DNA of 49,604 bases, the filler included, from Jimgerdemannia flammicorona (Eukaryota), in NCBI GenBank assembly GCA_003990765.1. It is 2 parts of 2 records of this genome, joined end to end, with 100 filler letters (N's around TTAATTAATTAA, not from the genome) between each part and the next. Parts side by side here need not be neighbours in the genome. Positions count along the whole stretch, not along the records: positions 1 to 24,753 come from RBNJ01000930.1; 1 more part is not named here. One strand, given 5' to 3'. The translations under genes and the position numbers were made by a program. The stretch's first letter is position 1. Every line of letters starts with the position of its first letter. Positions 1 through 30,730 of the stretch are shown one piece after another. The notes under the pieces are model-generated. The model was not told the origin of the DNA, did not search any database, and was given only the letters and a program-made list of their open reading frames with translations.

Positions 1-99
1 TTTTTTTTTTATAGTCCCTTGGACTGCCCTTTATTACTGACATCTATAATTCTAACAATACAATGTCACCCCCACCCTCAACCAATGCCCTGTAGACCC

Positions 100-3000: not shown

Positions 3001-3738
3001 CCAATGTTCAGACCCATCCTCATTTCCCTCAAACCTCCTCCCTCTAAGCAGCCCCCAGTGATCAGACTACGAACACCAAACTACTTTCAGTGCCAACCAG
3101 ACATCCACTCCCCAACATTCCACTGTCAAAACCCAGTCAATCCTAGAGCCCAGCCCTGCTACCCAGTGGGTGTACACCTGCTGATTGACCCAAAAATGTC
3201 TTCCTGAGTCCACTAAAGAACTCAACCTCTCTGTCTCCAACCAGTCACCCAACTCACGACTTTTGCCCCACATGTCTCTCCCTCCATCTGTTCTATCCAT
3301 CTCCTTATCCCATACTATATTGAAGTCACTCCTCATACAGTCCAGCCCAACTTCTCCCAATACACCAGCCTTGTTCAATCTGTGAATCCAATCCACCCTC
3401 TTCCCTCTCTCAGCTGGGCAGTAGCAAGACCCAACCATCAATGAGCCCCATCCAGGCCTCTTCTAAACTCCCCACACCATCTGAGACCCCCAATGTCCAA
3501 TGTCCTCAATATCTCCCATCCCTTTCTGAATGAGAATACACACTCTCCCCCTCCATACTACTGCCCCCCCCCATTCCTTAGTCTAATCCTGTAAGTCCAC
3601 ATCTGCCTCATAATGAACATTCTGTAACAAGAAGAGGTCTGCATCTAGTCCCTTAAGCCATCCAAATATATACTTCCTCCTAGCCACCCCCTGTAACCCA
3701 TTAATATTCAACAAGAATATCCTAGTTGTACTGTTCAT
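100..3738 (-). pseudogene. LINE ORF2 (APE endonuclease + reverse transcriptase), multiple stops and frameshifts
   Basis: EN motifs: NINGL...DLFLLQNVH, (G)DFN, SRIDWVL. RT motifs: LLYKNKG..WKNWWPI.LLD.D.K, QYGFVSG, GVLQGDPLSP, AFADNMVV, GGLGLVDF. The 3' boundary is approximate. Confidence 0.9.
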
Positions 3739-3811
3739 ATTGAATAAATGTTGCAATAGAGACCCCATTTTAGAATTCCATACTCATCTCATCTCCAGTC
3801 AGATCTAAGCA

Positions 3812-5677
3812 CTATTCAGCTTCCAAGTCACCCTCTGCATTAGCCTGAGCATCCAGTGTCTCCAAGATTTCCTGACATTCCACTCCGTCCACTACCTCCA
3901 TATCTGACCAATAATCCAAGCAGACTACACACCACTTCTCCAGTTCCTTCCTCAAGTTCCACAAGAATAGTGCTCTGTTGCTCACAATCCTCCTAAGTTC
4001 CTCCTCTCTCTGATCATTGACTTGATATTCAACTGACTCCAGGAGAACAGCCAGGATCTCATTTCTCGGCACCTCCTCCCCCTGTAGGATCTCCTCTCAA
4101 TGTCTTTCTTCCATCACTCTGAAATCCTCACCCCCCAGCTCTTCAGCTGCTACCCCTTCCAGGGTCTTCCACATCCACTTCTCCTCATCCACCACCTCTA
4201 CCACACTCTGAGCAATTTGTCCCCCATCTACCTCAGAGTCCACCAGTGCACTCCTCCACACTGACTCATCCCACTCCTCATCTGGCACATCTAGCAGCTC
4301 CTCCTCCCCCTCAGCTCTACCTGGGATACTATACTGAGGGTACACACCTTCACTCATATCCACATCTACCTCTGTATTGCCAACCCTCTCCACCTCCACT
4401 CTTAGCTAAGCCCCACTCTGGGTCCTTTCACCCCCCTCAGCCCAGGCGCTCTCCTGTAATCCTGCACCCCTCTCCCCTGAGCTTCCACTGGCCCTACCTT
4501 CACCCAACCTCGCCAGCAGCTCCTTCTGGATTTTCCTCCCCTGCAACTTCTCCCAGGCCCCCTTCTCCATTCAGACCCTCTTTCCATCCACCTCCCCCAC
4601 CACCATCCTGGCCTCAAACTCCTTCCATGCCAATCTCCTCCTCACGACTACCCCTTCCAGATCTTCCAGAGCCTCCAACAGGTCTTCCTCCTCCTCCTGG
4701 GTCCCCTTCACCCTCAAGACCTTGTACTCCACTAGTCTTCACCTCAGTATTGCTAGCCAGTCCCTCAACTTCCCTATACTCTCCCTCTCAGCCAGCCTCA
4801 CCCTGACATCAATGTCACCAGTCTGAAGCTCTGTACCCTCCCAGACCTTGAACTCAACATCCACAATCTCTCCATACTCCCTGATCACCTTCACAACCAA
4901 CTCCCTGGTCCTCTCCTTTGACACTGTAGGGAGATCCAGCACTGTCAACTGTACCACTTGAGGGTCCCAGCGCATATATCTGGTCATAGGGACGACAACT
5001 CCACCAACTGTTACCCCCTTCTCCAAGGCCACCAGCAAGGTGTCTTTCTCCTCGAACCCCACCTCGACCCCTTCCTTCTTCTTCAAAAACTTCACCAACA
5101 CTGCTCCTTTTGTCTCCTATGCTACCAGCCCCAAAATCATCCTCGCTGTCACCACCAAGCCACAGAAACACATCATAACTGTGAATTCTGACCTTGACTT
5201 CTTGAGTAATGGGGCCAACACCATGCCCATAACCCTATCTGCCAGGTCCCTGGGCCTCATGCCTACTCCCCGTCCTGAATTATCAACTACCATCACATCT
5301 GGATTTTTTGCCAGATCTCCAGTCACAGCCCCATCACCAGTCACATCTCCAGCCCCTACTCTCACTCCTCCCCCACCCTTAGCAACTCCCCTGGGTGCAC
5401 CTCCCATTCCCCCAGTAGTAGCTATCGACATCTTCCCCAGGCCCAGCCAACCATCTAGACCTGAGGCCATCTTCCCTATTCTGACCTTGTCAGCAAAGGT
5501 TGACCTCTCCCCTCCTCTCTGCCTCAGACTGCCCCTCTCTCCACCACCAGGACCATGGCTAGCCATCAAGGCCTCCGGCATCTCCAATCCATCTCCCCTC
5601 CTTCCCACCTACTGCCAGCCAAAGACACTGTCTCCCCCCTGGCCAGTACGCTCACCAGTTCAATCGTTGCCATCCAT
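3812..5677 (-). pseudogene. LINE ORF1, degenerate
   Basis: Run of minus-strand ORF fragments directly upstream of ORF2. The N-terminus MDGND*TGERTGQGG..FGWQ*VGR matches the ORF1 start at 24616 (TGQGGPGAFEWQQVGR). Confidence 0.8.
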
Positions 5678-5758
5678 GTCAATAGTTGTCAGGTACCAAA
5701 AACATAGTAAAAAGTGTTGTCTGAGTCTTGTGTCACCCGAATGTTACCGGTGAAAGGA

Positions 5759-6626
5759 TGATGACTTTCTCAACTCTTCTCCTCATCTCTACTGTAATCA
5801 TTATAGGTACCCCTTTCATCAGAAGTTATATCACTCTGAGATTCTATCTCAAGCAGCATGTTATTAGAATACACACCTCTCTAATAGTTAACCCAGTCTT
5901 CAGTATATCCTCCAATAGTCTGGCCTCCTCAAAGCTCACCTCCACTCCTTCCAGTTCTCTTAGAAACTTTATGGATACTGTACCATTCATCTGCTTAGCA
6001 ATTAGCCCCAAGACTATTTTTACTATTACTGCTAAGCCCCATACAAAGTAACTGCAAACTCCAAGATTGACTTCTTGAGTAATGGGGCCACTACTAGGCC
6101 CATTACACTATCAGTAAGATCACTCAGCCTCATGTCCTTTCCACAGCTTGGTCTACCATTAGTAGTCCCATCTAGATTTTTTTTCAGATTGCCCATCACA
6201 CTCTCATCAATAGTCACCCCTTCAGTTACTATACTGCCAGCCCCCCTACTCTGGTCCCCTAGAGGGGCTCCCTCCTTCCCTCCAGTATCTATATTCTCCT
6301 TCTCTAGCTCTAGCTATCTATCCAGTCCCATCACCTAAGCTTCCATCTTAACTTTGTTAGTAAAGATTGACTGCTTCTCCCTAGACTATACTGTACCTCC
6401 TCCTCCTCTGTTACTAACCCCCTTTCCTCCTGATGAAGTGCTCAGCATCTCCAAACCTACTCCCTAATCTCTCTCTACATGTTGCCAGTCAAATGTACTA
6501 GAATTACTCTATCTAATATACTTCATAAAACTCTGATTTGAGGATATATTCTTAAGATATTTCTCTAAAGAACAGTGTAAAGATAGTTGATATGTATTTA
6601 TATAATATGAGATATATCAAGAAGAA
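5759..6626 (-). mobile_element. Older, more mutated 5' fragment (ORF1) of a related LINE, interrupted by LINE-a
   Basis: Peptide DLTDSVMGLVVAPLLKKSILEF matches LINE-a DLADRVMGMVLAPLLKKSRSEF. Nucleotides 6061-6135 resemble 5191-5262. Confidence 0.8.
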
Positions 6627-7860: not shown

Positions 7861-8934
7861 CATGCTTCTTTCTCCACTATCTTACTGGTCACAATGGTTT
7901 GGTAGGCAATCTTTCAAGTCTACTTTTCATAATTATTACCCCCTCTACCTTGGGTTGGTTTACTATATCTATTGCAGGGCAGTAGGAGGGAGGCAATGGT
8001 GATGAGTTGCCCCTTTATTGGTATCAGATCAGTGTCTTTTCTACTTTTTCACAGTTTCTGGTGCCTTCAGCTACATCTGGAGTATATCCATTTTGGTGTG
8101 GTGCCTTCTTCCTTTTTCCATTGCCAACAAGGTGCTGTCTTGGTGTATCTTGGGCTATATAGGGAGTTGGCTAACCTTGAGCATCAAGTGCTCAGTATAG
8201 GTTACCTGCAGGTCCTCAGTATCTATGGTGGGGCTCTCTGGCTTTAGTGAGCTTCCCAGCGAGTGTGGTTCTGGTATAAGTAACTACTTTTCAGGTATTA
8301 TCAGGATGGGAGGGGAGATGGCCATTACAGATAGGAGGAAGGATAATAATAGTGAACTAGTAGGATACTAGGCTGGGGATGGTCATTAGGGCTGGGGCGG
8401 GTAATGCTTCAGTGGGGCCTTTTGATTGGTACAGCATAGTTAGGTAGTAGGTGATACTCTTGGCTTCTTTTGGTGGATTGGCAGGTTAGGCCCTGGTTGT
8501 CAGGGGGGGTTGGGGGGCCTGAGGCTACCCATTTCAGACATCTTAGCTGCACTCAACTAGAACTGGGAGCTGACATGGCAATGTGATCGAGGCTTGCAGA
8601 CTTGAGTAGTAGAGTATTGGAGGTCTTCTTCTGTCTCATATATAAGTTCTTTACTCACCTCAACTGAGAGAACCAGGCCCTATCCACCATGTTGTACTTT
8701 GATGAGGGTTTTTCTCTGCCTGTCATTCTCTTTGAGGTGGCAGGGGCTATTCTATTTGGCTTGGGCATGGTCTTGTATATACATTGGGTTCTCAGGCATA
8801 TACTTTTGGTCATTGGCATATGGTTGGATTTCCCCTGATAGTAGGGAGAGCATGGTGCACAGAATGAGATACAGGCTGCCATAGGCCCTGCTGCACCTAG
8901 TATAGTTGAGCTGCTGGACAATAGCTAGCCTAGG

Positions 8935-11093
8935 TATAAGAGGGTTGCTTTTAAGATAACTGTTACGTAGTTCTGGAAGGGTTTTCTGAAAGTTCTGGAT
9001 GTTCTGGGAGACCATGTTCTTATGGTCAAGATCAATTTCATATGGAGTACATTCTCTATGCTTATTGATTTCAAGATTGGGTTGATGTCTCAACCAAAGT
9101 CCTTTTTCAGACTAGTTCTGGATGTTCAGGATTTTCTGTATTTCAGAGAGTTCAAGAAACTAAGACAAGCTTAGTTGAATTGGTGTATCGCTGCAGACAA
9201 TACTCAATTAAGAAATTTCATGATAGGGTTAGGAGTGGGATCTAATAGAGAGTGGATTTACTTAAGAGTAGTTTGTGGGTTATTAAATAGGTTTATTTAC
9301 TATTCATGATATTGCTATACTAGGAGTAGTTGTATCAAGGGGTATTGTGGGGAAGTGCTCAGAAGTTGTGTTTGGATTGTTCAAGTCCATTCAAGTCTGA
9401 GATTCTGAGATCTGGGGGAGGGGATATTTATACTAGTGAGGGCTATCTGGACTATGTTAGATATGGATGTAGTACTAAGTGCCTTGCTGAGTCGGAATGC
9501 AGTCACGTAGTACAAGGGTGATCTGATATATCAAGAGATTATCTGACTGCTGAGTCAGTTTACAGTTATATTATATAAGACTAATCTAACTATACTATGA
9601 CTGCTAAGCTATTTATAGGTTTAGACACTATCTGGGTAGTCTTTGATAACATCACTATCGATTGCATCATCTCTGATGAAGTAGTCATCTAGGAATAGTG
9701 GTTCATAGATTACTTCTCCTTGTTCGCTGAGGTAATAATACATTGGAACTTTGTCTCTATCCTACAAGATGGCATTGTCAGTCTTGTATGCTGGGTAAGG
9801 TATTGGTGGGTGAAGGAGAGATGCATCATCTTCACTTTCATCAGTTTTGCTATCTGCATACCTTCTATAGGTTACAGCACTATGAGTTGCGGGGTTGTAG
9901 TAAGCTGGCAGCTGTGGTTTGTATCACTCATACTCAGGTAGTGGAGTGGTTGGTTCGATCTTGAGAGTTGTCTGGAGGTATAGGTTGTGTTCTCCGATCT
10001 CTTCATTGTAGTTGAAGTAATCAGAGATGAATGTGGGTTAGTATTCATGCCAGTAGTCATTGTTCCAATAAGTCTCATATGCTGTTATAAATTGTTGTAA
10101 ATTCATCGGCAAGGTTGGCGGTGTGATCAGGGTTGGCAGGGATCCTTGGCTTGAGGTCATATCAGCATCAGAGGGATCATTGTCTTCTGCTTTGTCTTCA
10201 TCAAAGTGGATTATATCATAGATATCCTTCATGGTATATCCAACTTGGGGCATTTGCAGAATATAATCATTGGGGTGTGAGAAGGTTCTGTCTGTGGTTT
10301 TGACATACTCGAGGTACTTATAGTTGAGTTCTTGTATTATATTGTTGATTTGGCCATAGGACAGGGTAGCTATCATTTTGGCTGTAGTAACTCAGAGGCA
10401 GGGAATAACAGTTCTATACTCATAGAAGAGTTCTCGGTGTTTGCAGGTAATGAGTTTCTGGTGTTGAGACATCTGGGTAATATCTGTATTGTGATGGTGT
10501 TTGACTATATCTTCTAGGAGGTGGCCGATCTGGTAGTAGCTTGAGATTTGTCCAATTCGGTGGGCCTCATTGAGTATGTTTAGAGCATTTCATCGGGCTT
10601 CCACAAAATAGAGAGATGCCAGGCTATGGATATTCATGAGGGGTAGAGGGGGAGTGGCTCGGTTGACAATGGTATTCCAAATGTCAGCATAGATACAGGT
10701 ATAGATCTCAGTGGTCATGTTTGTGTGTTTGAAAGTTGTAGTTGTTGTTTATTTTGGTTCTTTGATTTGACGTATCTTGGTACTCAGTATATATGCATTT
10801 GGTCCTGATTGGTAAGATTCTATTTATATAAATCTTGTGTTCCATGACTTTATGTTAACTCAGCTTCATGATCAAGCAGGTGATTTCCAGATTTGTTCAG
10901 AGGTCGCATGTGATTTCAGTGGCTTGTTCAGAGGGTGATATGTGATTTTGGTGGCTTGGAGATTGTGCACTTACACTCAGCTTCATGATCAAGCAGGTGA
11001 TTTCCAGATTTGTTTAGAGGTCTCATGTGATTTCAGTGGCTTTGTTCAAAGGGTGATATATGATTTCAGTAGCTTGGAGGTTGTGCACTTACA
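8935..11093 (-). mobile_element. Solo LTR of gypsy family A (copy 1), with an extra 118-bp duplicate of its 5' end
   Basis: Reverse complement of 19358-21423. Termini TGTAAG...CTTATA. 5-bp TSD ctagg (8930-8934) / ttagg (11094-11098). 10976-11093 duplicates ~10858-10975. Confidence 0.9.
9621..10718 (-). pseudogene. LTR-encoded accessory ORF, family A copy 1 (366 codons, in-frame stops)
   Basis: Same ATG-to-TAA length (1098 nt) as copy 3. Includes the ORF-track fragment 10038-10376. Confidence 0.8.
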
Positions 11094-11193
11094 TTAGGTT
11101 AATGGGGGGGCAGTGCTTGATGGGTGGTGGGAGAGGGTTTTGGCCTATATAGTCTAGGTTTCCTTCTAATAAAAATCCATAAGACATTGAGTC

Positions 11194-11251
<58 letters not shown>

Positions 11252-11659
11252 AGTGAACCAGTGAGGTATTAGGCTAGAAGTAGTCATCAGGGCTGAGATG
11301 AGTACTGCTTTGATAGAGTCTTTTGATTGGTACAAGATGATTAGATAGTAGGTATTACTCTTAGCTCCTTTTGGCAATTTGTGGGGTTAGGCCCCAGTCA
11401 TTGAGAGTGGCTAGAGGACTCAAAGCTACCTATATCAGATATCTTGACTATACTCAACTAGAACCAAGAGCTAATGTAGTAATATAATTAAGGTCTACAG
11501 GCTTGAGTAGTGAAATATTGGGAGTCTTCTCTTACCTTATATATAAGTCCTCTACTTACCTTACTTGGGAGAACCAGACCCTACCCACTGTTCTGTACCT
11601 TGAGGAGAGGTTTTTCTTTATCTGTTATTTTCACTTGGGGTGATAGAGACTATTCTATT

Positions 11660-14600
11660 GAACTTCTTTTGCTCAAATCACTCAGAGTAAGATAAGCCAC
11701 CAGCAAAAGACAACATATTTTCCAGTTTTTATTTTGAATATACTGGTGTACATTATGTAGCAGAAGTCTATAAAGCACAATAAGTTTTGGCAAAATCTGT
11801 CAAGTTTTGGTGACATGACTAGTTAAGGTTCCTCTAGCTTTGAGCATCTGGAGAGGAGGAGGCCTGGTCTGGGCCTTCCCAAGAGCTTTGCAGCTATTGC
11901 AGGGACTGGTATGGCTGCTGGAGGGACTGGTGGTCAGGAGAGATCTGGTGGAATCAAGGCCTGGTATACTGTGGTGGGGAGTAGGAGGGTGGCAGTCAGA
12001 TCCTTGGGGGTAGGGTAGGGGGGGCATAGTGTTGGGGTCAGGTGATGGGTCAGGTGATGGGTCAGGTGTCCAACAGGGGGCAGGGGTCTGATAGTGTGAT
12101 GTCCAGGACTAGTTCTTCTGGGGCTGGGCTGGTGGCTAGAGAGAGAACTGCTGGTGGTATAGTTGTAGCTGATGAAGTAACTGCTGGTATCTCTGGGATC
12201 AAAGAGAAGGTGACTCTGGTAGCTAGAACAGGTGAGCTCATGGTGCGGCCCTTCTTTCATAAGTCAGTATTAATATGGGCAGTTTTGGCAAATTTTCTGA
12301 GATTGGTAATGTCAGCTAGAGAGGTTCTGCAACTAATGGGAAATGAAGTGGCTGGAGTGGAGTCCTTGAAATTTAGAGGCAGTGGAGATTAGATTTGTAG
12401 AGGAGGATGTAATGATGAAGATACTGGAGAAAGAGCTGACTGTCAAGAGCATCCAGATTGGGATGGCAAGATGTTTGAGGTGAGACCCACATATTGTATA
12501 GCTGGTGGTGGAAGGTCTGCCAACCCTGGGCAGACAGAAGATCAAGGAGATAGTGGTGGAGGCACTGGGAAGCTATGGTGAGATGGTGGATTTTGGTTTC
12601 ATGTTTTGGGAGGGCACCAAATTGAGGAATAGCAACTGCAAGGTGATGCTGTAACTGGATCTAGATTGGAGGATAAGAGTACAAGATGTGGAGGAGGAAA
12701 GGAGCTAAACAGGAGGAGGAAGAGCTGGCAATTACTCTGGAGGAGAGGGAGGCTGCCAAAGAGCTATGAAAGAGGAAGTGGGAAGAGTTCACCAAGAATT
12801 GGGTCTGGATTCAGGCTGATGGCAAGCAGAAAAGGTAAAGGAAAGGGAATTGGAAGCATCTGTAGGCTGCTCTTCAGGGGGCAGTACTGGAAGAGGAGAC
12901 AAGAGCAGAGGTGATCAAGAATTAGATAGAAGGCATAGAAGTGGCAGAGGTGTCTTTCTCCTAGCTGGGTGATGTGGAAAGCTCAGAACATATACCAATG
13001 AGAGGAAAGTGGGCAGATAAGGAGAAGGTGAGAGAGGGGGGCTTTGAGAATGTTATTGAAGTAGTACTGGAGACTCAGATGGAGGATACCCATATAACTG
13101 GGGTGGTAAATGTTCATTGGAATTGCCCTGAGGCTGGGGAGGTGATATATTTGGAGAAGGTTGCAGAGGAGGATGAGCTGGTGGATGTGGCCTCTGATGT
13201 GTCAGCAGACAGGAAGCAGCTACAAGAGTTAAGCAGAATCCCTAGACCATTGACTCCTGGGCCCCTGGTGATGACAGTGGAGAACTGGTATCAGGTAGTA
13301 CTTGAGGAACTTATGGAGGAGGACATCAAGGAAGTGGATGTTTTCCATGGATCTCAGGAGGCATGGGAAGGATTTTTCAATATTGCAATGCAGGGGCCCA
13401 AGCTGGTGATGGCAATGGTGGTGGCTCTTCTGGATAATAAAGGATATGAAGTTGATGAGAGCAGAATGGCAGACATCAGGAAGGTGGCAGCTAAAAGAGT
13501 GGATCTTTTCTGCAGTAGTGTGAATGGTGATCATATCTGAAGGACAATTTGCAAGAACCAGTGAGAGATTATTAGAGGAAGGGCTGAGAAGGTAGTGGCA
13601 GTCCCAGCTGAGCTTTAAATATTTTCTTTGATAATGATGAACAGTTTATATATTTTATCAATTAATGTCAATAGATTGCATGATGGTATTAAGAGACAGT
13701 GACTGTTCCAATGGCTTAAAGTCAGGAGATATGATATTGTTTTTCTTCAGGATGTTTAGGCTTATAAAGAGCAAGACTATAAGATATGGAGTAAAGAATA
13801 GTATGGTGGAGCAGGTTGGAATAAGCAGGTGGATATCTTGATCAGTGTAGGTAAAAGCAAGCTGGTGGAGGTAGAGGTCTATAGTGATAGACTGGTGTGG
13901 GGAAGGCTAAAAGAAGGAGTAGGTGACAGTTTGACAGTAGGCTCAGTTTACCTCTCTACAGTTGGCAGAGAGCGAAAGCAATGAGTTGAGAGTTGGTAGA
14001 CTTGGGAAGATTGAGAGGTGGTTGTTTTGGACATTCTGGGGGAGAACTTCAATATGGTATGTAATTGAACACTAGATAGGTCTGATAGTAGAGCAGGAGT
14101 TACAGTGTCCTCTGGACTATCTTAATGGCTTCAGGTGGAGCATGACATGAGATTGGTGGATGGTGTTCATCAGTATCAGAGGGAGGAGTCTGGACCTTTT
14201 ACCTGGTAGCATCCAGTTGGTCAAGGATTAGTTGAGACATGAATAGATTGGGTGCTAGTAGCTGAGTATTGGGGTAATGTGCTGGACATTACAGAGGTAC
14301 ATTGGTGCTCTTGGTCTGATCATTGGGAAGTAGAGGTATGTGGTAGATTCCAAGCAGCAGACAGTAGTAGAGAGTGCTGGTATCTCAATGTGGCTTTACT
14401 CAGAAGGAAGAGAGAGAACAATTTGTGGCAGTTGTGAGACAGGAGATAGCATGATAGCAGAATGATGAGCAGTTGATAGCAGAATGGTGGGGTAAATTCA
14501 AACATTTGGCAGGTGCCTACTGGTGTGATGTTGGAGAAGTGGCTGGAAAGGAGCAGAAGGACAAAGAAAGGAGAGTAGAGCAGGGGCTGCAATGGCAACT

Positions 14601-17304
14601 GAAGCTATTAGAAGGGGGGAACTTATCTGAAGAGGTATGCCACTGGTTGGCAGTAGAGGTGACAGAGTGCAGATGGATTTGAGGGCATCTGAGACCAGGA
14701 TAGTAGATGGTCTGCTAGCCAGATTGTAGGCTAGACAGTTGGAAGAAGGAGAGAGGCTGACTAAATATTTATCTGGTATTTTAAAGGCCAGGAGGGTGCA
14801 ACACAGCTGGGCCTCAGTATTGTATAAAGATGGAGTAGAGGTCTTAGAGATTACTGATATATTGGGAGAGATATCAGGACAATGGCAGGCTCTCTGGCAA
14901 GATGGTGGAGAGTATGCTAAGGATGTAGCACTTTGAGAGAACAATGATAATATGGTGAACAATTGGCCAGTGATAGTATTGTCTGAGATAGGGGAGGTAG
15001 TCATGGGAGAGGTATCTTTAGATAAGTATTAGAGTTATTGAGGAAGATACAGACTGGTTTATCACCTGGGGAAGATGGGCTGCTCTGGGAATTCTGGAAG
15101 GAGTTCCAGACAGAGTTTGGTAGCTGATTGGTAGAGATGGCTAACTTTATCCTAAAGGAGAGCAGCTGGATTAGCAATGGTTCCTTGGAATTAGTTGCCC
15201 TTCTATATAAGGAAAAGAGAGATCGACGAGTATGGCATAATTGGTGATCTATCATACTGCTGAATGTAGATAGAAAGCTGGTCTCAAAGATTCTGGCAGA
15301 GAGGATGTAGCAGTATATTTTTGCAATAGTTGGTGAAGAGTAGTGAGACTTCATCAAGGGAAGGCAGATTAGAAATAGTATTGCTTGGGTACAGAATGTC
15401 TTAGAAGGCTGTAGGAGCCAGCAGGTAGATGACCAGATCATCTTTCTGGATCAAGACAGAGTACAGTGGAGTTATTTGGAGGCTGTTCTGAAGAGAGTAG
15501 AGTTCAATATAGTAGAGACAAGGCAATTGATGGGCTTAGTACAGAGATACTGAGTGGTAGTTATAATAAATAGATAGAGTGGGCCAGAGTTTGCCTTAGG
15601 GTGAGGTGTACTATAGGGGGATCCTCTCTCTCCCCTCCTTTATGTACTCTCTCTGGAGCCTTTGCTGGTATGGCTGAAGGGGTGGCTTTCTGGACTGTGG
15701 ATGGAAGATGTGGTCTGGAAACTAGGTGCTTTCACAGATGACATAGTAGTAGAGTTGGGTAGTATAGAGGATGTGGATCTTCTACAGGAAAGAGTTGGGG
15801 CCAAGCTGAATTGAGGCAAGTATGAGACAATGGAACTTAGTACTGGTTTGGGGGTACATGGATAATTTGGACAATTGGTGACCATAGAGAGTGCTGTTCA
15901 GTATCTGAGTATCTGGTTCTCAGTATATGGGATAGTCCTGCAGAAGGAGTAGTGGTATAGATTGATTCAGAAGTTGGAGGGTACTTTGACTGGTTGGTCA
16001 GAGAGGAGCTTCTTCTTGGTAGGCAGGATAGTGGTCTTGAATATATATTGGTTGCTCAAATTGTGGTATCTAGGATATTATCTGGATTTTCTGGAGTGGG
16101 TGGTATAGCAGCTGAAGAAAATTGTGGAAGGGTGGTTGTGGTGTAGAAAGTGACCACAGATTGGGTGAGACACATTGGTGATGAGGACAACTGATAGAGG
16201 CCTGGGGTTGGTGGACTTCAGATACTGGCTGAAGGTACTTTGGGGTTGGTAAGAGTGCTGGCTAGTAGCACTAAATGAGGAGGATTGGGGCAGGCTAGTT
16301 ATAGACAATTGAGAGATCTGGTTCTGCCTCTATAGTGAGGTTTGGAAGGATATGCAGGGTCTGCTTCAGGTCAGAAATGTATGTAAACTGCAGTATAAGG
16401 GATTCTGGTGGAGTATTGTAGAGGCCTGACTAGCTATGGAGTTGGCAGAACTAGAAATGGCAGTGGGTGAGAACCCTGAGCAGAGGTAGTGGTGGCTGGG
16501 AGACCTCTACATAGATGGCTATAGTTTGAAGGAGTACTCATTAGTTGAGGCAATAGAGTGGATTAGGGCTGGCCCTCTGGAGAGATGGCCAGCAGGTTGG
16601 CAGAGAGCAGGATTTGGTAAAGACTAGAAGTGAGACTATATCTGGAATTGGGGAGCCTCTTTGCTCAAGATAGTACCTCCTAAGTACTGGGTAGTTTGGT
16701 GGTAGTTCTTGAGAAGAAACATGATGTTGGGCTATCAGACAGTGATGGTAGATGGCTGTTGGGACTGCAAGTAATGTAGTGAGGTGGATGGTGGAGTAGT
16801 TTAGACACCAGAGCATATTCTGGTAGCCTGCCCTGGGGTTGAAGGATTCTGGCAGAGTTTGGAAGTTTATTGGAGCCCTCAGAGTCAAAGATCAGGAGAT
16901 CCAGTCAGCCTGGTGGTCAAGTACTAACTGGTGGGGGAGATTGGAGATATCTGGGGAGGCCTAGGTTGAGTCTTAGGGATTTGGGTTCTGATAGCAGTGC
17001 ATTGGCAATAGATATTTGAGCAGGACCCATGGATGGGAATTGGAGAGCTGGTGGAGTGGTAGAGGTGGCTTCTCCAGGAGGTAGTACAGAGGTGGTAGTA
17101 TCAGGGGAAGCAGCTTTAACCAGAGATCTTAAAAAGGTACAGGACATCATACAGCAGAGTTGAGAGTATCTGGTGATAGATGATCATGGAGTTAGATAGA
17201 AAGAAGGAGTTGGCTGAGCAATTCTACCTATATATATTGTGTCAGTAGTAGTTTATGGTTAATTTGTATTATAATAGCAGTAATAAAGTTGAAGTTCAAA
17301 TAAC

Positions 17305-17349
<45 letters not shown>
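11660..17349 (+). mobile_element. L1/Tx1-clade LINE, full-length and degenerate (LINE-b)
   Basis: Poly(A) at 17308-17349. ~15-bp TSD agagactattctatt (11645-11659) / agaggctattctatt (17349-17363). ORF1 relic ~11790-13617. Confidence 0.92.
13634..17250 (+). pseudogene. LINE-b ORF2 (APE endonuclease + RT), many stops
   Basis: MMNSLYILSINVNRL..YDIVFLQDV, G(E)NFN, IDWVL, WSDH, SPGEDGL, GDPLSPLLY, GAFTDDIVV, YLSIWF, and a zf-RVT-like Cys/His segment near 16760-16830. The 3' boundary is approximate. Confidence 0.88.
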
Positions 17350-17365: not shown

Positions 17366-19357
17366 TATAAGAGGGTTACTTGTTAGAGTAACCATTATAT
17401 AGTTCTGAAAGAGTTTTTCAGAAGTTCTGGATATTCTGAAAGACCATTTTCTTAAGATCAAGATTAATTTTATATAGAGTATATCCTCTATGCTTATTAA
17501 TTTTAAGATTGAGTTGACATCTCAATCAAAGTCCTTTTTTGAACTAGTTCTAGATATTTAGGATTTTCTATATTTCAGAAAGTTCAAGAAACTAAGACCA
17601 GCTTAGTTGAATTGGCATATCACTGCAGACAATACCTAATTAGGAAATTTCATAATGGGATTAGAAGTGGAACCTAACAAAGAGTAGATTTACTTAAGAG
17701 TGGTTTGTGGATTATTAAATAGATTTATTTGCTATTCATAATATTACTATACTAGGAGTAGTTGTGTGAAGGGGTATTGTAGGGAAGTGTTCAGAAATAT
17801 TTTTGTATGTTCAAGTCTGAGATTCTGAGGTCTGGGGGAGGGGGTATTTATACTAGTAAGGGGCTATCTAGGCTATACTAAATATGGATGTAGCACTTAG
17901 TACCTTGTTGAGTCAGAATGCAGTTATATAGTATAAGTGTGATCTGATATATCAAGAGATCATCTGACTACTGAGTCAGTTCACAGTTATATCATACAAG
18001 GCTAATCTAACTATACTATGACTGCTAAGCTATCTATAGATTTAGATACTGTCTGAATAGTCTTTGATGATATGTATTACTATTGATGACATCATCTCTG
18101 ATGAAGTAGTTATCTAGGAAGAATTGTTTGCAGATTAACTCTCCTTGTTCACTGAGGTAATAATTCATTGAGACTTCATCACTATCCTACAGGATAGCAT
18201 TATCTGTCTCATATACTGGATAAGATATTAGTGGATAAAGGAGGAGTACATTGTCTTTACTTTCATCAGATTTGCTGTCTGTATACCTTCTATGAGTTAT
18301 GGTACTATGAGTTACTGGGTTGTAGTAAGCTGGTGGCTGTGGTTTATATTGCTCATACTTGGGTGGTGGAGTTGTTGATTTGATCTCAAGAGTTGTCTGG
18401 AGATACAGATTGTGTTCTCTGATCTCTTTATTATAGTTGAAGTAATTAGGAGTGAATATCAGTTGGTACTCATACCAGTGGTCAATATTCCAATAAGTTT
18501 TATAGGTAGTTATGAACTATTGTAAGTTCATCAGCAAGGTTGGCAGAGTGATCAAGATTGGTAGAAATCTCTGGCTTGAGATCATATTGGTATCAGAGGG
18601 ATCATTGTCTTCTACTTTGTCTTCATCAAATCAGATTATATTATAGATATCCTTCATAGTGTATCTGACTTGAGGCATTTGTAGGATATAGTCATCAGAG
18701 TGTGGGAAGATTCTGTCTATAGTCTGAATGTACTTGAGGTATTTATGGTTGAGTTCTTGTATCATATCATCTATTTGGCCATAGGATAGAGTAGCAATCA
18801 TTTCGGTAGTAGTAACTTGGAGGCAGAGAATAACTATGCTATACTCATAGAAGAGTTCTTGATATTTATAGGTGATGAGTTTCTGGTATTGAGATATCTG
18901 AGTAATGTCTATATTATGGTGGTATTTGACCATGTCTTCTAGAAGGCAGCCAATCTGATAGTAGCTTGAAATTTGTCTGATTTGGTGGGCTTCACTAAGC
19001 ATGTTCAGGGTATTCTATCAGACTTCTATGAAGTAGAGAGGTGCTAAACTATAGATATTCATGAGGGGCAGAGGAGGTGTGGCTTAGTTGACAATGGTAT
19101 TCTAAGTGTTAGTATAGATATAGTTGTAGATCTCGGTGGTCATGTTTATATATGTTCAAGAGTTGGGGTTGTTTGTTTGGTTTCTCTGTTTCAATGTGTC
19201 TTGATGCTCAGTATATATATATTTGGTCCTAATTGGTAAGATCCTGTTTGTATAAATCTTATGTTTTGTAACTTTATATTGACTTAACTTTGTATGCTGT
19301 GACTTCAGTTTAACTCAGCTTCATGATCTTATAGGTGATTTTCAGATTTGTTCAGAG
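17366..19357 (-). mobile_element. LTR of gypsy family A (copy 2), missing its first ~73 bp where element A inserted
   Basis: Reverse complement of ~19431-21423; ends CTTATA at 17366. Contains the LTR ORF relic at 18042-19143. Confidence 0.88.
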
Positions 19358-21423
19358 TGTAAGCGCACAACCTCCAAGCTATCAAAACTACACGTCACCC
19401 TCTGAACAAGCCACTGAAATCACACGCGACCTCTGAACAAATCTGGAAATCACCTGCTTGATCATAAAGCTGAGTCAAACCAAAGTTATAGTGCACAAAG
19501 CTGAGTCAATACAAAGTCACAGAACACAAGATTCATATAAATGGAATCTTACCAATCAGGACCAAATGTATGTATATATACAGAGCACCAAGACATGTTG
19601 AATCAGAGAACTAAAACAAACAACAACCACAACTTCCAAACACACAAACATGACCACCAAGATCTATACCCATATCTGTGCTGGCATTTGGAATGCCATT
19701 GTCAATCAAGCTACACCCCCTCTGCCCCTCATAAATATCTATAGCCTAGTACCCCTCTACTTCGTGAAAGCCCGATGGAATGCTCTGAATATGCTTAGCG
19801 AGGCCCACTGAATCAGATAAATCTCAAGCTACTACCAGATCAGCCGCCTCCTGGAAGATATGATCAAACACCACCATGATACAGACATCACTCAGATGTC
19901 TCAACACCAGAAGCTTATCGCCTGCAAACATTGAGAACTCTTCTACAAGTATAGCACCATTATTCCTCACCTCTGAGTTACCATAGCCAAAATGATTGCT
20001 ACCCTGTCCTATGGCCAAATTGATGACATGATACAAGAACTCAACCACAAGTACCTCGAGTACATCGAAACCACAGACAGAACCTTCCTACACCCCAATG
20101 ACCATATCCTGCAAATGCCCCAAGTTGGATATGCCATGAAGGACATCTATGATATAATCCACTTTGATGAAGATGAAGCAGAAGACAATGATCCCACTGA
20201 TGCTGACATGACCTCTAGCCAAGGATCTCTACCAACCCTGATCACACTGCCAACCTTGCTGATGAACTTACAACAATTCATAACAGCATACGAGACTTAT
20301 TGAGACAATGACCACTGATATGAATACTAATCTGCATTCACTCCTGATTACTTCAACTATAATAAAGAGACTGGAGAACACAACCTGTACCTCCAGACAA
20401 CTCTTGAGATTGAACCAACCACCCCACCACCTGAGTATGAGTGACATGAACCACAGCCACCAGCTTACTACAACTCCATGACTCATAGTGCTGTAACTTA
20501 CAGAAGGTATACAGACAGCAAATCTGATGAAAGTGAAGACAATGCACCCCTCCTTTATCCACCAACACCTTATCCAGCATATGAGACAGATAATGCTATT
20601 CTGTGGGATGGTGATGAAGTTCCAATATATTATTACCTTAGCAAACAAGGAGAAGTAATCCACGAACTACTCTTCCTAGATGACTACTTCATCAGAGATG
20701 ATGCAATCAATGGTGATGTCATCAAAGACTACCCAGATAGTGCCTAAATCCATAAATAGCCTAACAGTCATAGTATAGTTAGATTAGCCTTGTATGACAT
20801 GACTGTGAACTAACTCAGCAGTCAGACAATCTCTTGACATGTCAGATCACACTTGTACTATATGACTGCATTCCAACTCAGCAAGACACTTAGTGCTACA
20901 TCTATATTCAGCATAGTTCAGATAGCCCCTCACTAGTATAAATACCCCCTCCCCCAGACCTCAGAATCTGAGACTCAGACACACAAGAACATTTCTGAAT
21001 ACTTCTTCACAATATCCCTTCACATAACTACTCCTAGTATAGCAATATCATGAATAGCAAATAAACCTATTCAATAACCCACAAACCACCCTTAAGTAAA
21101 TCTGCTACCCATTAGGTCCCACTCCTAACTCCATCACGAAATTTCCTAATTAGGTATTGTCTGTAGCAATATGTCAATTCAACTAAGCTGGTCTTAGTTT
21201 CTTGAACTTCCTGAAATACGGAAAATCCTGAACATCCAGAACTAGTCCGAAAAAGGACTTTGGTTGAGATGTCAACCCAATCTTGAAATCAATAAGTGTA
21301 GAGGACATACTCTATATGAAATTGATCTTGACCATAAGAAAACGATCTTCCAGAATATCCAGAATCTCCAGAAAACCTTTCCAGAACTATGTAACAGTTA
21401 CTCTAAAAAGCAACCCCCTTACA
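19358..21423 (+). repeat. 5' LTR of element A (2066 bp)
   Basis: TGTAAG...CTTACA inverted termini. Boundaries match the TSD-flanked solo LTR at 8935-11093. TATA-like TATAAATA near 20937. Confidence 0.92.
19650..20747 (+). pseudogene. LTR (U3)-encoded accessory ORF, ~365 aa in consensus, unknown function
   Basis: ATG 19650 to TAA 20747 in one frame that joins ORF-track fragments 19992-20303 and 20478-20747. Several interrupting stops are sense codons in sister copy 1, e.g. CAC TGA ATC AGA TAA here versus CAC CGA ATT GGA CAA. Confidence 0.82.
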
Positions 21424-21426
21424 ACT

Positions 21427-21439
21427 TGGTAGCAGTGGT
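21427..21439 (+). promoter_or_regulatory. Primer-binding site, likely tRNA-iMet
   Basis: TGGTAGCAGTGGT begins 3 nt after the LTR end. TGGTAGC is complementary to the 3' end of eukaryotic initiator tRNA-Met. Confidence 0.7.
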
Positions 21440-21529
21440 TTACAACCCAATTCCACTTCAAGATGCTTCCTCACCCTGCTACAAACCTCTCTGCGAATTC
21501 CTACAAGTTGGTATCAAGCCCAACCTCTG

Positions 21530-23400
21530 AACTGGAATTTATCCAAACCATCTGACAATCTGGAGAGAATTGAACCTAATGTACAAGGACAATTTGATCT
21601 CCACACCTGCAACAAGTGGGACAAACTTCATTCAAAAAAAGAAGTACTCTGATTAAATCAGCAAATAGGTGAAATCTTATTTACCGAACTTCTTGCACTA
21701 CACCTAGCAAGTCAAGATGAAGAAGGTCTTATTGAAGTCTTCTTTACTCTTCTCAACAAGAGTTTTGTCAGCTCCACAAACCCAAGTGACCTAGGACAAT
21801 CAGCAGCAGTCTTTCTAGCCTTAGTTCCTCATAAAGCCCAAGTCTCTGTAGCCAAGTGGCTCAACTCTACCAACTTTCACCATACAAGGACCAAGACCGC
21901 ATTATACTACTGATTCCAGAACAGCAAGGCCCACCATATTCTTAAAGAAGAAGCAAGAGAAACCCTTCATCAACTACCTGACTCTGAACCTAAAGCAGGC
22001 CCTGCTACAGCCCTACCTGAATCTGAAACCAATACCGAACCTGAACTTGACTTTGAATTAAGTCTATCTGAGATCAGATATACAACTGATTCTGTCTACT
22101 TTGACACTGAGCAAACCCAATTACATGGGGACCAAACCAAAGAAAAGGAGGAGTATCTCAGTAAATTCAATCCCAGATATACCATCAAAGGAGAAGTACC
22201 TCTATCAAGACAGAATACACCTACACAGCAACAAACAGTTATCTATCAAGCCCTCACTCCAGACCCCCAACTACTACTCCAGTAACTTACACAGACCCAA
22301 AGAACCCTATCACACTCTGCACCAGTACCTCAAGTAGTACTAGTATGTAACACCACTACCAGCAGTCTAACCACCTCCAGTAAATAATATGGTGAACCAA
22401 CAGATTCTAGACCTCACAGCCCAGGTAGCCATAATGGCAGCAACCATTACTGCCTTAGCAGAACAGACCTGATCTATCAAAAATCTGAGCCTATCTACCT
22501 TTAATAGTACTGCACAAGAAGTCCAAAGCTTCATTAGTGTAGTTGACACCAATTTCGAAGCCAATCAATGGACTAATGAGCGAGTTGCTGACTATGTTCT
22601 GACAAACAATCAAGACCACACTCTGGAATAACTCTTTGCTACCACTACAGCCTATGTCCGCTGAGTTGTTACATTCTTCCAAGGACCTGCTGAAGAATAG
22701 TGGTGAATCCTTCCTGAAAAACCCCTCACATGGGATACCTGACCTGTAGTAGTTGCTCAGAATGCAGCAAACAATGTCCCAGGATATGGAGCCCATCCTG
22801 CAGTCCCTGGACTTAAACAACTCATGATTGCTCAATACCACAGCAAAACCATGATTGCTAAATCTCAAGTAAAACTCTGCAACCTCAAATTCGATGTACA
22901 TGGCAAGGAAGAATTCGAACCCTTCTGTACAAAACTTGAGTCACTCCTGAACACTGTTAGCCTAGGATATATCACCAATGATGAAGCACGAAATGGTACA
23001 AGAGCAGACCATTTATTCAATGCCCTGCCTGAATGGCTTATTAGAAAAATCCGAGAACAAGGCTGCCCAGTTGGTTGTGATCACCAAAAATGGTGCCTGG
23101 CAAGAATCAAGACTATGGTCAAGTGAATCCTAACAGCTGGACCAATTCTGCCCTGAAGACAATTCAATAACAAGGAAAGGACTTGGACCAAGAAAGAAGA
23201 ACTCAAGCATGAAGCATCCCAAGCTCCCTCCACATCCATCTCTTGGATACTCAGAAATCACAAACCCACTCAGCCAAGTACCTTCAAGAAACTTACTGAA
23301 GGTAAAAGGAATGAACTTTGAAGAAGCAGAGCATGTTTCTATTGCCGAAAGACAGGACACATGGCCAGTGTCTGCCCTAACTGAAAACCCCTAACAGCAA
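21530..23400 (+). pseudogene. Gag of element A, with long N-terminal extension and CCHC zinc knuckle
   Basis: CFYCRKTGHMASVC at ~23334-23375. Capsid-like segments (LSTFNSTAQEVQSFISVV; LFNALPEWLIRKI). Start is approximate. Confidence 0.75.
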
Positions 23401-23453
23401 CATGAGCAACTGTTACCACTCTGCACCACCTCAACAACCTGACCACCAGAACA

Positions 23454-23861
23454 CTGGACTTTATCAAGTTAAGACAAACTGCTAAGACCCCAACCAAAAG
23501 AAGCCAAAAAGCAACTGGATATGACCTGTATGTAGCTGAAGAAGCTACAGTTTCCAACCAAGAAGTCAAACAAGTCTATACAGGAATTAGCATTCAAATC
23601 CCTGAAGGATATGTTGGAAGAATATGCTGTCACAGCAGCCTAGCATTGAAAGGACTCTCAGTAGAAAGAGGAGTTATCGATGAAGATTACACAGGTAAAA
23701 TCATTGTCCTCATCCAAAACCATAGTTGGACACCCTTCAAGATCCCTATTGATTTCTGCATTGCCCAGATCCTATTCGAAAAAATCGAGTCAACCCTGAC
23801 AGTCAAGGAAGTCCCTGAACTACTGCCCACCATCCAAGGATCCAAAGGATTTGGCTCATCA
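23454..23861 (+). pseudogene. dut: dUTPase domain of element A polyprotein
   Basis: Motifs ATGYDL, (R>H)SSLA, GVIDEDYTG, IAQ and GSKGFGSS, in frame with the upstream zinc knuckle. Confidence 0.93.
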
Positions 23862-24080
23862 AACAAGGCCCTAACTCAACCTACTATGAGTAAAGAAGAA
23901 CAATTCTACAAAAAGATCGAAGATGGATATGTACCAAGTGGCTGATGCCCTCATGACATTGGAATGTACTCTTTCCAAATGATTGATAATTGCTTCTCTT
24001 GTATCAATGAACTGGCTCAAAGAAGAACCAACAGAAGGAAAGCTCCTACAACTGAAATCACCACTATTGGATTAGACAAA

Positions 24081-24440
24081 CTGCTCACACTTAAGGCTTT
24101 TGTCAACCAAGCACCTGTCAAGATTATGATAGACAGTGATGCCTTAGGCAACTTCATCAATGAAGAAACAGCCAACAGACTTAAGGTCTTCACCTCTCCA
24201 GTACAATAAACTCAAGCAGTGGCTACAGCCAATGGAACCTCACATGTTATTAGTAAGGAAGTCTACAACCTACTCTTCTGAATTGGTAATTACCAAGTAT
24301 ATGTTACTCTCCAAATTGTACCACTTCCTGACAATGAAATCATCCTTGGGACTCCATGGTTAAAACAAGAGAACTCCATGATTGATTGGGTAAACCATTC
24401 TCTGGCCATCAAGAAAGGATGCCACAACTTCAAACTGCAA
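24081..24440 (+). pseudogene. Retropepsin aspartic protease of element A
   Basis: VKIMIDSDALGNFI (DSG decayed to DSD), VATANG, IILGTPWLKQENSMIDW. Confidence 0.88.
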
Positions 24441-24535
24441 GGCGAGAAGAACCCACTTAATTCTAGTAACCCTGGATCAAAGATCACCCACATCAACAAG
24501 CTACAACTTAAGAAATTAGCCAACATCCAACCACA

Positions 24536-24753
24536 CCTTTCTCCGGTAACATTCAGGTTACACAACCCTTTGGCAACACTTTCAACGCAGTTTCTGGAGA
24601 AAAGCTACTAGTATCATGGCAAGCAACGAGCATCTGGAGGTACATACTGGGCAGGGTGGCCCTGGAGCGTTTGAATGGCAGCAAGTGGGGAGAGGCCCTG
24701 GCTTGGGGGGAAGTATGAGGGGCCTGCTGGTGGGGGGCCATAGTGGAAGAGGG
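24536..24753 (+). mobile_element. 5' end of a LINE of the LINE-a family, inserted in element A pol and cut by the gap
   Basis: CCTTTCTCCGGTAACATTCAGGTTACACAA terminus. ORF1 start MASNEHLEVHTGQGGPGAFEWQQVGRG at 24616. Confidence 0.82.
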
Positions 24754-24853: not shown

Positions 24854-25619
24854 AAAAAAGAAAGAAATTTGACTATACCAAGTACAAAAGAAGCTAGATC
24901 TTGATCAGGAACAAAATCCTATGCTTATCTATCAGAACAACTAATTTATAATTACTACATATGGCAAAGAATTCTATATATTACTCCAGAGCAAAGCATA
25001 TTGATATACAGTACCATTACATAAGAGAGTATATAGAGAATGAGACTATATGCTTGGAATACATCTCCATGGAGTATATGATTGCAGATTTGCTCACCAA
25101 AACCCTTCTGAGACCTAAATTCCAGCAATACACTAAAGAAATGAGTCTTATGGTAAACTATATGCCAGTAATGGGTATTGAATAATCACAGGATATTTTG
25201 TAATGAAAAGGAAGCAGAAAAATGATACAATACCTCTCTCTACACCTCTCTCTCTTCAAGCATTACATTGCACTATTCATTCTTTCTTCTTCTATATTTG
25301 AGATTTTCTACTGTCAGGATCTATCTACATCCTTCATTTTCACTATGGTTTCTTATGTTTTAAGCATGGATAGATGGCATTTTTTTCGTACATTTGCAGT
25401 CATTTTGCGGTTATTACTTGGTTACATTGCATTCTTGCATATTATCTCGTGGAGCGGGAGTGTTGAAATTGACATCTCGATAATGTGGCTTACACATATG
25501 TAACTACGTTACCTTGAGTTACGTCACTCGATGCGTAAATACACGCTATCTGGAATAATAAACAAATGCTCTTTTTCTCTGCTCTCTCTTTCTCCAGTAT
25601 CCACTCCATATTCACAACA
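24854..25619 (+). mobile_element. Ty1/copia 3' fragment: RNase H end, PPT and 159-bp 3' LTR
   Basis: SRAKHIDIQYHYIRE..MIADLLTK motif. Purine tract ggagcgggag to 25460. LTR TGTTG...CAACA at 25461-25619. Confidence 0.9.
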
Positions 25620-28759: not shown

Positions 28760-30730
28760 ATTCACTCATTGAGAATAATAATTGAGATCTAGTCTCTCTT
28801 TTGTCAAATTGATAAATTAGAAGATCTCACTAGATATATAAGATTAAATATAATAGCAATAGTAATATAGAGTAAAATGAAGCTCAATTTATAGTAAAGG
28901 ATTATTTAGAAGAATATAGTATAGATTATAAAAAGATCTTCTCTCCAGTATTCAAGCTTACTTTGCTCAAGATACTTCTTATGATTAGAGACAAATACAA
29001 CTATGAAATCTATCAAATTGATATTAAGATAGCCTTCTTGATTGATAATATAGATATAGAGCTATATATACATCTGTCAACTATAAGGATACAAACTACA
29101 TAATGATGAGCAAAAAAAGCTTATATGCAAATTATATAAAGGTCTCTGTAGTATCAAATAAGCAGTAAGACTGTAGAACTGAAAAATCAACAAATACCTC
29201 TTAGATAACAGATTTTAGTATTATGAAGCTGATTCATATACATCAGACATATATTCTCAGAAATAGTATATATAGAAATTTGAGTAGACAATATTATTTT
29301 GATTAAGACAATAAGTGAGATTAATAATATAAAGATAACATTATATCAGAAATTCAAGATAATAGATATGGATAATATATTCTATCTTCTTGAAATATCA
29401 ATTATATATATATAATAGATATGAGTATGCTATATATCTATTACAAGCTACATATGTATATATATATAAACTATATTCAAATAATTCAGTATGAGTAAAT
29501 ATAAGCCTATCAGAACTCCTATAGAGATATCTATAAGGTTAAAGAAGTTCAATAATGATATATCCAAAGAATCAATAATATCTTCTATTAGTAAGCTGTG
29601 AGATATCTTATATATCTTATGCTTAAAATGAGATTCAACATATTATATATAGTCAACAAGATGGTACAGTACTTATTCTACTATAAAAATTTATATTAAA
29701 CAGCAATTAAGCACATTTTCTAGTATATTAAAGATATGGTATACTATATGCTTAGTTTGAATAATGATAATAAGAGACAAAGTGAGAGTACTATAAGATT
29801 ATCTAGTGTATATAATACTGATTGGGCTGGCAACCTGGATGACAGACAGTCTATGACTAGATATCTCTTAAAATTAGTAAAAATAGAGTTATTTCATGAT
29901 ATATATATGCAATCTTCAGTAATAATATCATCTATACAAGTAGGTATTATATATTATCTATAATAATAAAGGAAGCTATATAGCTTTTGAAACTACTAAA
30001 TAAATTGGAATTTTCTCAGAAATAGTACTCTATTCTACTCTAATAAGACAATCAATCTATAATTATTATAGTAAAGAATCCTATATCTTATATAAGAACA
30101 AAAAATATTGATATATAATATTATTTTATATAAAAATAGATGAAAAATTATACTATATATCTCAAATATATCTCAATAGAGTATATGATAATAGATTTAT
30201 TAACTAAAGCCCTTCTAAAGATAAAGTTTGACTTATATATACTAGAAATAGGACTTATAAACTACATATATACCAGTAAGTAGTAAATAATAGTGATAAC
30301 ATAATGATAATAGAAAGTTTTTCAGAGTACTAAAAGCCTCTCACTATATCTTATATATATCTATTAATATTACTTATATCTCTTCATTTGTGAATAGATC
30401 TAAATCTATATTACTAGTCTTCTACAATATTCTTGACCTTTTTATATACTTATAAATAGGAAATTTTGACCTTTTTCAGTTATCTAGATAGCATTTAGTT
30501 GGTTATATTTTAGTTTGGCCATATTTTAGTTCTTTTATTTATATATTCTAGAATATATCTTATAGAGCAGGAGTATAGAAATATCTTAGTTATATCAACT
30601 TGATATATAGTAGTATGGCTTAACTATATTATTACTATAAATATTATCAATATACATAAAAGTATGTAAGCTATCAATAAATAATTACTGTTTCCTTCCC
30701 TCTATCTGTCCTTATCTCAAGTATTCTACA
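28760..30730 (+). mobile_element. Decayed Ty1/copia 3' half: RT, RNase H, PPT and 157-bp LTR
   Basis: EYSIDYKKIFSPV..EIYQIDIKIAFL (copia RT), TDWAGNLDDRQS, RTKNIDI, DLLTKAL. PPT agagcaggag. LTR TATAGAA...TTCTACA at 30574-30730. Confidence 0.88.

Follow-up and report, generated by a model that had tools for sequence, protein, structure and literature searches.

In MMTV, the superantigen gene sag lies in the U3 portion of the long terminal repeat (LTR), upstream of the promoter, and is duplicated together with the LTR. MMTV is an animal retrovirus with an env gene, and Sag is a membrane glycoprotein that acts on host immunity and is dispensable for the enzymatic steps of replication. The 3' accessory genes of other retroviruses, such as nef of HIV/SIV and bel/bet of foamy viruses (with Tas nearby), partly overlap U3; their products are regulatory or host-directed, and their expression relies on mapped spliced or internal-promoter RNAs. 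To our knowledge, a complete and selected gene inside an LTR is a textbook case for MMTV only.

In Ty3/gypsy-type elements, lineage-restricted open reading frames (ORFs) without known domains are described, in the excerpts consulted, for Cer1 of C. elegans (CERV), for the plant Athila/Ogre/Tat elements, and for a bdelloid rotifer (PMC10309623, PMC2864245, PMC5408684), and a figure legend marks an "add. ORF" in some fungal chromoviruses (PMC2864245). An excerpt of PMC10309623 presents CERV as a regulator needed for the export of genomic RNA. According to the same excerpts, these extra ORFs lie outside the LTR, whereas the ORF analyzed here appears to be part of a 2-kb LTR. Fungal Ty3/gypsy elements bearing a dUTPase include PosPlaTy3 of Postia placenta, elements of Phanerochaete chrysosporium, and Tmt1 of Tuber, with the dUTPase of PosPlaTy3-3 located at the N-terminus of Pol; the passages on these elements in the excerpts of that paper hold no mention of an LTR-borne ORF (PMC2864245). 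The phrase "LTR contains an ORF" occurs in an excerpt of PMC9412291. A word search of open-access text for retrotransposons with an ORF inside the LTR returned retrovirus papers only and, among the matches listed, no open-access article on fungal LTR retrotransposons dealt with LTR-borne ORFs by its title or abstract.

Here, we analyzed a stretch of DNA of 49,604 nucleotides from Jimgerdemannia flammicorona (the window). The reading that we favor, and that we consider likely as a whole, is that of a selected gene lying in the LTR (U3) of a probably Ty3/gypsy, dUTPase-bearing element, which would be a rare site for a 365-codon gene of such an element. By arrangement, the closest described case is MMTV sag: in both, a complete coding frame would lie inside the LTR, here upstream of the presumed promoter. 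Unlike in MMTV, no env was seen, the element is retrotransposon-like and resides in a genome that is rich in repeats and shows C>T hypermutation, and the two proteins are unrelated in sequence (0 Pfam families for the present one). The likeness to nef and bel/bet consists in the presumed position downstream of pol, with the difference that here the whole frame would be inside the LTR and is known from sequence alone. As in the PosPlaTy3, P. chrysosporium, and Tmt1 elements, a dUTPase is present in gag-pol; the RT that would serve for family placement is missing from the window.

A 2.07-kb repeat unit with the features of an LTR

Self-blastn identified a unit of ~2.07 kb present three times in the window, with pairwise identities of 81-84.5%. 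The three copies, which have common ends and unrelated flanks, were delimited by self-blastn and by a three-copy alignment, complemented for copies B and C by reading of the sequence. Copy C (19358-21423, + strand, 2,066 bp) is the 5' LTR of a cut element; copy A (8935-11093, - strand) is a solo LTR; and copy B (17366-19357, - strand) is truncated, missing its 5' ~70 bp because element C inserted there. No complete two-LTR element is present within the window.

Copy C begins with TGTAAG (19358-19363) and ends with CTTACA (21418-21423), and the ends of copies A and B are the same, with C>T changes. Copy A sits between CTAGG (8930-8934) and TTAGG (11094-11098), which are identical at 4/5 positions with one C/T difference; a match of at least 4/5 has a probability of ~1.6% by chance, and it comes from this single copy only. 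Three nucleotides past the end of copy C, a sequence resembling a primer binding site (PBS), TGGTAGCAGTGG, can be read on the + strand at 21427-21438; it would pair with the 3' end of a tRNA, and no tRNA genes were found in the window. The termini, the PBS-like sequence, and the flanks of the solo copy that the initial annotation had described as a target site duplication were all recovered by direct inspection. The ORF also lies where it had been placed, within the repeat and ahead of the PBS, not in the internal region, and both the solo copy A and the truncated copy B hold it, in agreement with the statement that solo LTRs carry the ORF.

The internal part of element C (21424-24523, + strand) was defined on the basis of Pfam matches and public contigs. 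It contains a zinc knuckle (23328-23381; zf-CCHC PF00098, E 0.002), a dUTPase (23481-23861; Pfam, E 1.5e-28), and an aspartic protease (24081-24416; gag-asp_proteas PF13975, 5.2e-8, and RVP_2 PF08284, 1.3e-6), all on the + strand, in one frame and in the same orientation as LTR copy C. In an Atlas look-up, the dUTPase stretch matched generic dUTPase clusters only, mostly from phages, and a search among longer proteins with the dUTPase-protease part as query returned no match. Element C ends before RT and IN, and RT, RNaseH, and IN of this element are absent from the window; the + strand between 26000 and 38000 holds copia-type RVT_2 only. The type of protease, together with the known dUTPase-bearing fungal gypsy elements, suggests that the element is probably Ty3/gypsy.

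The contigs of four public runs were compared with positions 19300-24650. Three of the runs (X1, X4, and X10) show loose ends behind 24523, and for this reason we consider element C to be cut there. The differences listed for these contigs are 40 of 1,221, and the stop places of copy C lie outside those 40. In run X4, four contigs carry a purine-rich loose end, ..AAGAAGGGGAGAGT, immediately before 19358 (agreement 0.74; short contigs from another sample). These ends would look like a polypurine tract ahead of a 3' LTR; the window itself contains no polypurine tract.

Considering the common TG..CA ends, the flanks of copy A, and the presence of TGGTAGCAGTGG and of gag-dUTPase-PR after copy C, the unit is in our judgment highly likely to be the LTR of a retrovirus-like element, and the ORF very probably sits inside this LTR. 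As the window offers a solo copy, a truncated copy, and one joined to a cut element, and lacks an element with two LTRs, one could also think of an independent mobile unit lying by chance beside a gag-pol fragment. We regard this as very unlikely: 3 nt past the end of the unit comes the PBS-like sequence and then, oriented like the unit, gag, dUTPase, and PR; a purine-rich tract precedes the unit in other copies (public contigs); and TG..CA ends are combined with a 5-bp flank duplication.

A frame closed in all copies and open after reversion of transitions

The 1,098-nt frame reported by the initial annotation was found in the three copies of the unit, and none of them is open today. The ORF of copy C (19650-20747, + strand) comprises 365 codons plus the stop and has 8 internal stops, that of copy A (9621-10718, - strand) has 5, and that of copy B (18042-19143, - strand) has 9, along with a 4-base insertion near the 3' end that shifts the last ~10 codons. 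Using two outside homologues described below (P0001 and P0002) as queries, tblastn retrieved the three locations above and no others in the window.

When the C/T and G/A differences among the copies were set to C and G, one frame was open for 412 codons from stop to stop, while the longest open stretches in the other five frames ranged from 49 to 132 codons. The same reversion applied to two unrelated repeat pairs of the window, as a control, gave at most 128 and at most 58 codons. A simple majority consensus, taken over the three copies, is closed (longest stretch 124 codons), because five stop positions were struck in two copies each. All stop positions (15/15) are occupied by a sense codon in another copy, and the residue found there in P0001 or P0002 is W, R, or Q. 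Several of the doubly struck positions sit in CpG or CpA contexts and, given the rates at CpG and CpA, repeated hits at shared stop positions would be the simple reading. The 412-codon frame depends on reverting transitions and is in this sense a model, justified by the outside homologues; on these grounds, the earlier suggestion that the ancestral frame was open held up.

Two open homologues in environmental assemblies

An exhaustive HMMER search against representatives of ~15 billion proteins retrieved two relatives, P0001 and P0002. Each is open and is the only member of its cluster, and the two come from environmental assemblies. P0002 (128 aa, 80% identical) shares the Met start of the ORF and runs off its 1,180-bp contig; P0001 (247 aa, 62% identical) covers residues 115-365, has the same C-terminus as the ORF, and comes from a 998-bp contig. 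A narrower protein search ("near") returned P0001 only, and a search among shorter proteins, limited to 30-69 residues, found no relative. At the DNA level, no relatives were detected in scans of metagenome_contigs, viral_contigs, and genome_contigs. A match to an electric-eel protein (E 2.9e-6) falls on a Tyr/Trp/Gln-rich stretch and was discarded as compositional.

The de-mutated product is 90% identical to P0002, compared to 72-80% for the single copies, and 67% identical to P0001, compared to 57-61.5% for the single copies. The reverted product is therefore closer to the homologues than any single copy is, which supports the reverted reading independently.

Hypermutation and selection leave different traces

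The LTR alignment contains 420 transition-only columns, 44 transversion columns, and 8 three-state columns. The C>T changes affect 86% of CpG, 45% of CpA, 39% of CpC, and 11% of CpT targets, with a mirror pattern for G>A. In ascomycetes, repeat-induced point mutation (RIP) introduces C>T/G>A changes into repeats and strongly prefers CpA sites. The pattern observed here is a repeat hypermutation of the RIP or deamination kind, and its CpG preference also fits methylation-driven deamination. All three ORF copies were later inactivated by this C>T/G>A hypermutation; since all the copies in the window are dead, the gene may be extinct in this genome.

Hypermutation does not generate transversions, so we used these as a record of the older divergence among LTR lineages. 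Within the ORF, 18/26 transversion or three-state sites fall at codon position 3 (p = 2e-4), and 17/26 are synonymous, where the codons would predict 15.4% (p = 1.2e-8); when the same 26 sites are read in the two other frames, 2/26 and 1/26 are synonymous. Transitions in the ORF are synonymous in 41.9% of cases versus 38% expected. They look neutral, which fits a decay after insertion. The synonymous bias among transversions, obtained from three LTR copies with transitions set aside, bears out the selection proposed in the initial annotation, and we consider it highly probable that the ORF was kept by purifying selection while the element family diversified.

The argument for a gene has to be weighed against the possibility that the reversion of transitions, in a sequence rich in A and C, created the long frame artificially. 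Undoing C>T and G>A eliminates stops whichever frame is read, and the majority consensus is closed. Yet the five control frames and the two control repeats stay closed under the same treatment, the synonymous bias of transversions is specific to the frame of the ORF, and P0001 and P0002 are independent open homologues. We consider such an artefact extremely improbable. Because the reverted frame and the homologues are open and the transversions are mostly synonymous, the ORF is with high confidence a real gene that was selected in the past.

A real gene could still be a passenger, i.e., a host gene transduced into the LTR and useless to the element, with selection acting on the host copy or only early on. 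P0001 and P0002, the sole two homologues, could be host genes instead of LTR copies, and the product resembles neither gag nor pol. However, the synonymous bias was measured between LTR copies, which implies selection while the ORF sat in diverging LTR lineages; a wider host gene family is absent among the ~15 billion proteins; and the ORF shows the same strand asymmetry (A>T, C>G) as the adjoining gag-pol region. We thus regard a passenger as unlikely and favor a gene that belongs to the element.

The predicted product

No Pfam family was found in the three ORF copies, in P0001, or in P0002, and a PDB profile search with the product gave 0 matches at E<=10. A gag paralogue was considered and rejected, the best match between the product and the gag-dUTPase-PR of the element having an E of 3.4. 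The AlphaFold2 model has a mean pLDDT of 32.7 over the whole protein and of 54.4 over the N-terminal 128 residues, with 4-5 predicted helices. With this low-confidence model, Foldseek against PDB gave no match at E<=0.001 and returned generic helical bundles (best E 0.78). The Atlas model of P0001 is poor (pTM 0.15) and without a usable look-alike. No relation to Sag, Nef, or Tas emerged in sequence or fold from Pfam, PDB, and Foldseek on the low-confidence model.

The part covered by P0001 has a net charge of -36 and contains 19% Asp+Glu, 15% aromatic residues, and 10% Pro; for the tail, we put the net charge at about -30, with the same shares of aromatic residues and Pro. The tail also has two PPxY-like motifs, which are not conserved in P0001. 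Many transcriptional activators look like this, with a helical domain ahead of an acidic, aromatic tail, and Tas of foamy viruses, which has an acidic activation tail, is the model for a tentative guess here: the product could be an element-specific regulator, e.g., a transactivator. The sole basis of this guess is the combination of a predicted helical domain with an acidic, aromatic tail, and we rate it as possible, with the balance somewhat against it.

Organization of the LTR

From 5' to 3', the LTR consists of TGTAAG, ~290 bp, the 365-codon ORF, 190 bp, TATAAATA, ~115 bp, AATAAA, ~360 bp, and CTTACA. At its 5' end, TRF identified 31-bp tandem repeats at 19375-19440 and 19466-19529 (stretch 19375-19529, + strand). 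No other part of the LTR is as variable: the transversion density is 7.1% here versus 2.4% in the ORF, and the number of repeats differs among the copies and among the public contigs, some of which show skips of 31-51 bases there. By reading the sequence, two TATA-like boxes were noted on the + strand at 19535-19541 and 19573-19581, 70-115 nt before the ORF start; they are a candidate promoter, kept in copies C and A and weaker in copy B. Downstream, the TATAAATA box (20937-20944, + strand; sequence read and three-copy alignment) lies 190 nt past the ORF stop and is conserved in 3/3 copies. It is the presumed promoter of the element and would mark the end of U3. The AATAAA at 21060-21065 (+ strand), also conserved in 3/3 copies, is the presumed poly(A) signal of the LTR.

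As the conserved TATAAATA lies downstream of the ORF, we place the ORF in U3, a placement that we consider probable. The TATA-like boxes upstream of the ATG would also allow another arrangement, in which transcription starts from them and the ORF is the first cistron within a very long R. Against this, the strongest TATA box, kept in 3/3 copies, is the one downstream of the ORF, with AATAAA ~115 nt further on, and with an R of ~1.5 kb the 5' LTR would contain a functional poly(A) signal at a great distance from the cap, a situation that, as far as we know, the known LTR elements avoid. A location in R is in our opinion quite unlikely, and the following considerations refer to the ORF in U3.

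A possible mode of expression and its implications

According to the proposed explanation, the 2.07-kb repeat would be the LTR of an element with a gag zinc knuckle, a dUTPase, and an RVP_2-type protease. Because the ORF would lie in the LTR, each retrotransposition would copy it to both ends of the element. Located in U3, the ORF would be found in the genomic RNA downstream of pol, i.e., in the position of the retroviral 3' accessory genes. Its expression could run from the upstream TATA-like boxes to the AATAAA of the LTR, so that each LTR would be a self-contained gene cassette, or it could occur through a subgenomic RNA of the 3' LTR. The product might be a regulator specific to the element, in which ~140 N-terminal residues would form a helical domain ahead of the acidic, aromatic tail. 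As a more speculative and rather doubtful extension, solo LTRs left behind by the deletion of an element might go on producing a factor that acts in trans (a transactivator or a suppressor of host silencing) for the remaining members of the family.

If this explanation is true, the dose of the gene would scale with the number of LTRs and not with the number of elements, the gene would survive LTR-LTR recombination, and its action in trans might extend to all members of the family. A self-contained LTR gene cassette serving its family in trans would be a strategy not described so far, and it would offer a concrete case for transposon self-regulation, or for the countering of genome defence, in repeat-rich soil eukaryotes. 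The protein would also exemplify a class of orphans, with only two fragments among ~15 billion predicted proteins, that annotation overlooks because repeats are masked.

The region between copies A and B

Copies A and B are direct repeats and were considered as the LTR pair of one element; this was rejected, the interior being occupied by a LINE-like element on the opposite strand. The 6.4 kb between them gave zero Pfam matches on the - strand. On the + strand, a shorter piece of the region matched RVT_1 (30.5 bits, E 3.7e-7), the full-length three-frame scan giving 0 families, and the LINE-like element has a 42-base poly(A) tail. In copy A itself, the 5' 118 bp are present as a tandem duplicate (10858-10975 / 10975-11093).

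Nested arrangement of the repeats

Nested, mutated repeats make up the entire window, and no host genes were seen anywhere in it. Among the contigs of four public runs compared with positions 19300–24650, we found copies of the ORF-carrying LTR inserted into other copies of their own family, with joints running, for example, from 21053 or from 24268 to the LTR start (19358). The insertion of LTR C (the 5′ LTR of the gag-bearing element) into the truncated copy LTR B is the same kind of arrangement. This match between the window and the public contigs suggests that landing in its own copies is frequent for this LTR family.

Between LTR B and the solo copy LTR A lies a LINE-like non-LTR retrotransposon (11251–17349, +), recognized by an RVT_1 match at about 15239–15811 (+) and by a poly(A) tail of 42 bases (17308–17349). 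Its (+) strand is strongly G-rich, with a GC skew of about +0.45. A 53-base poly(A) run (11198–11250) separates this element from the right flank of LTR A. The sequence to the left of LTR A (8345–8756) is 71% alike to the 5′ part of the element on its right (11246–11659), and LTR A seems to have inserted into an earlier-arrived member of this LINE-like family. Positions 1–6000 of the window show the mirror GC skew (−0.5), at a GC content of about 50%; this stretch may belong to the same family on the opposite strand.

Stretch between LTR C and gag

The first clear gag methionine lies about 960 nt past the end of LTR C. The intervening stretch (21424–22383, +) has the same reading frame as gag-dUTPase-protease and a similar stop density. 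It represents one of two things: a leader of unusual length, or additional N-terminal sequence of Gag.

Other retroelements

Two further pairs of direct repeats, 41134–42434/46214–47522 (88.6% identical, 5.1 kb apart) and 32182–32647/38348–38811 (84% identical, 6.2 kb apart), resemble the paired LTRs of different elements. The longest frames in their de-mutated consensus (C/T and G/A differences between copies set to C and G) have at most 128 and at most 58 codons, thus neither pair carries a gene comparable to the LTR ORF. Copia-type material is represented by a fragment at about 28780–29530 (+; RVT_2 match, E = 1e-12) and by a copia-like RNaseH tail, recognized by eye at about 24900–25200 (+), directly past the cut point of the gag-bearing element.
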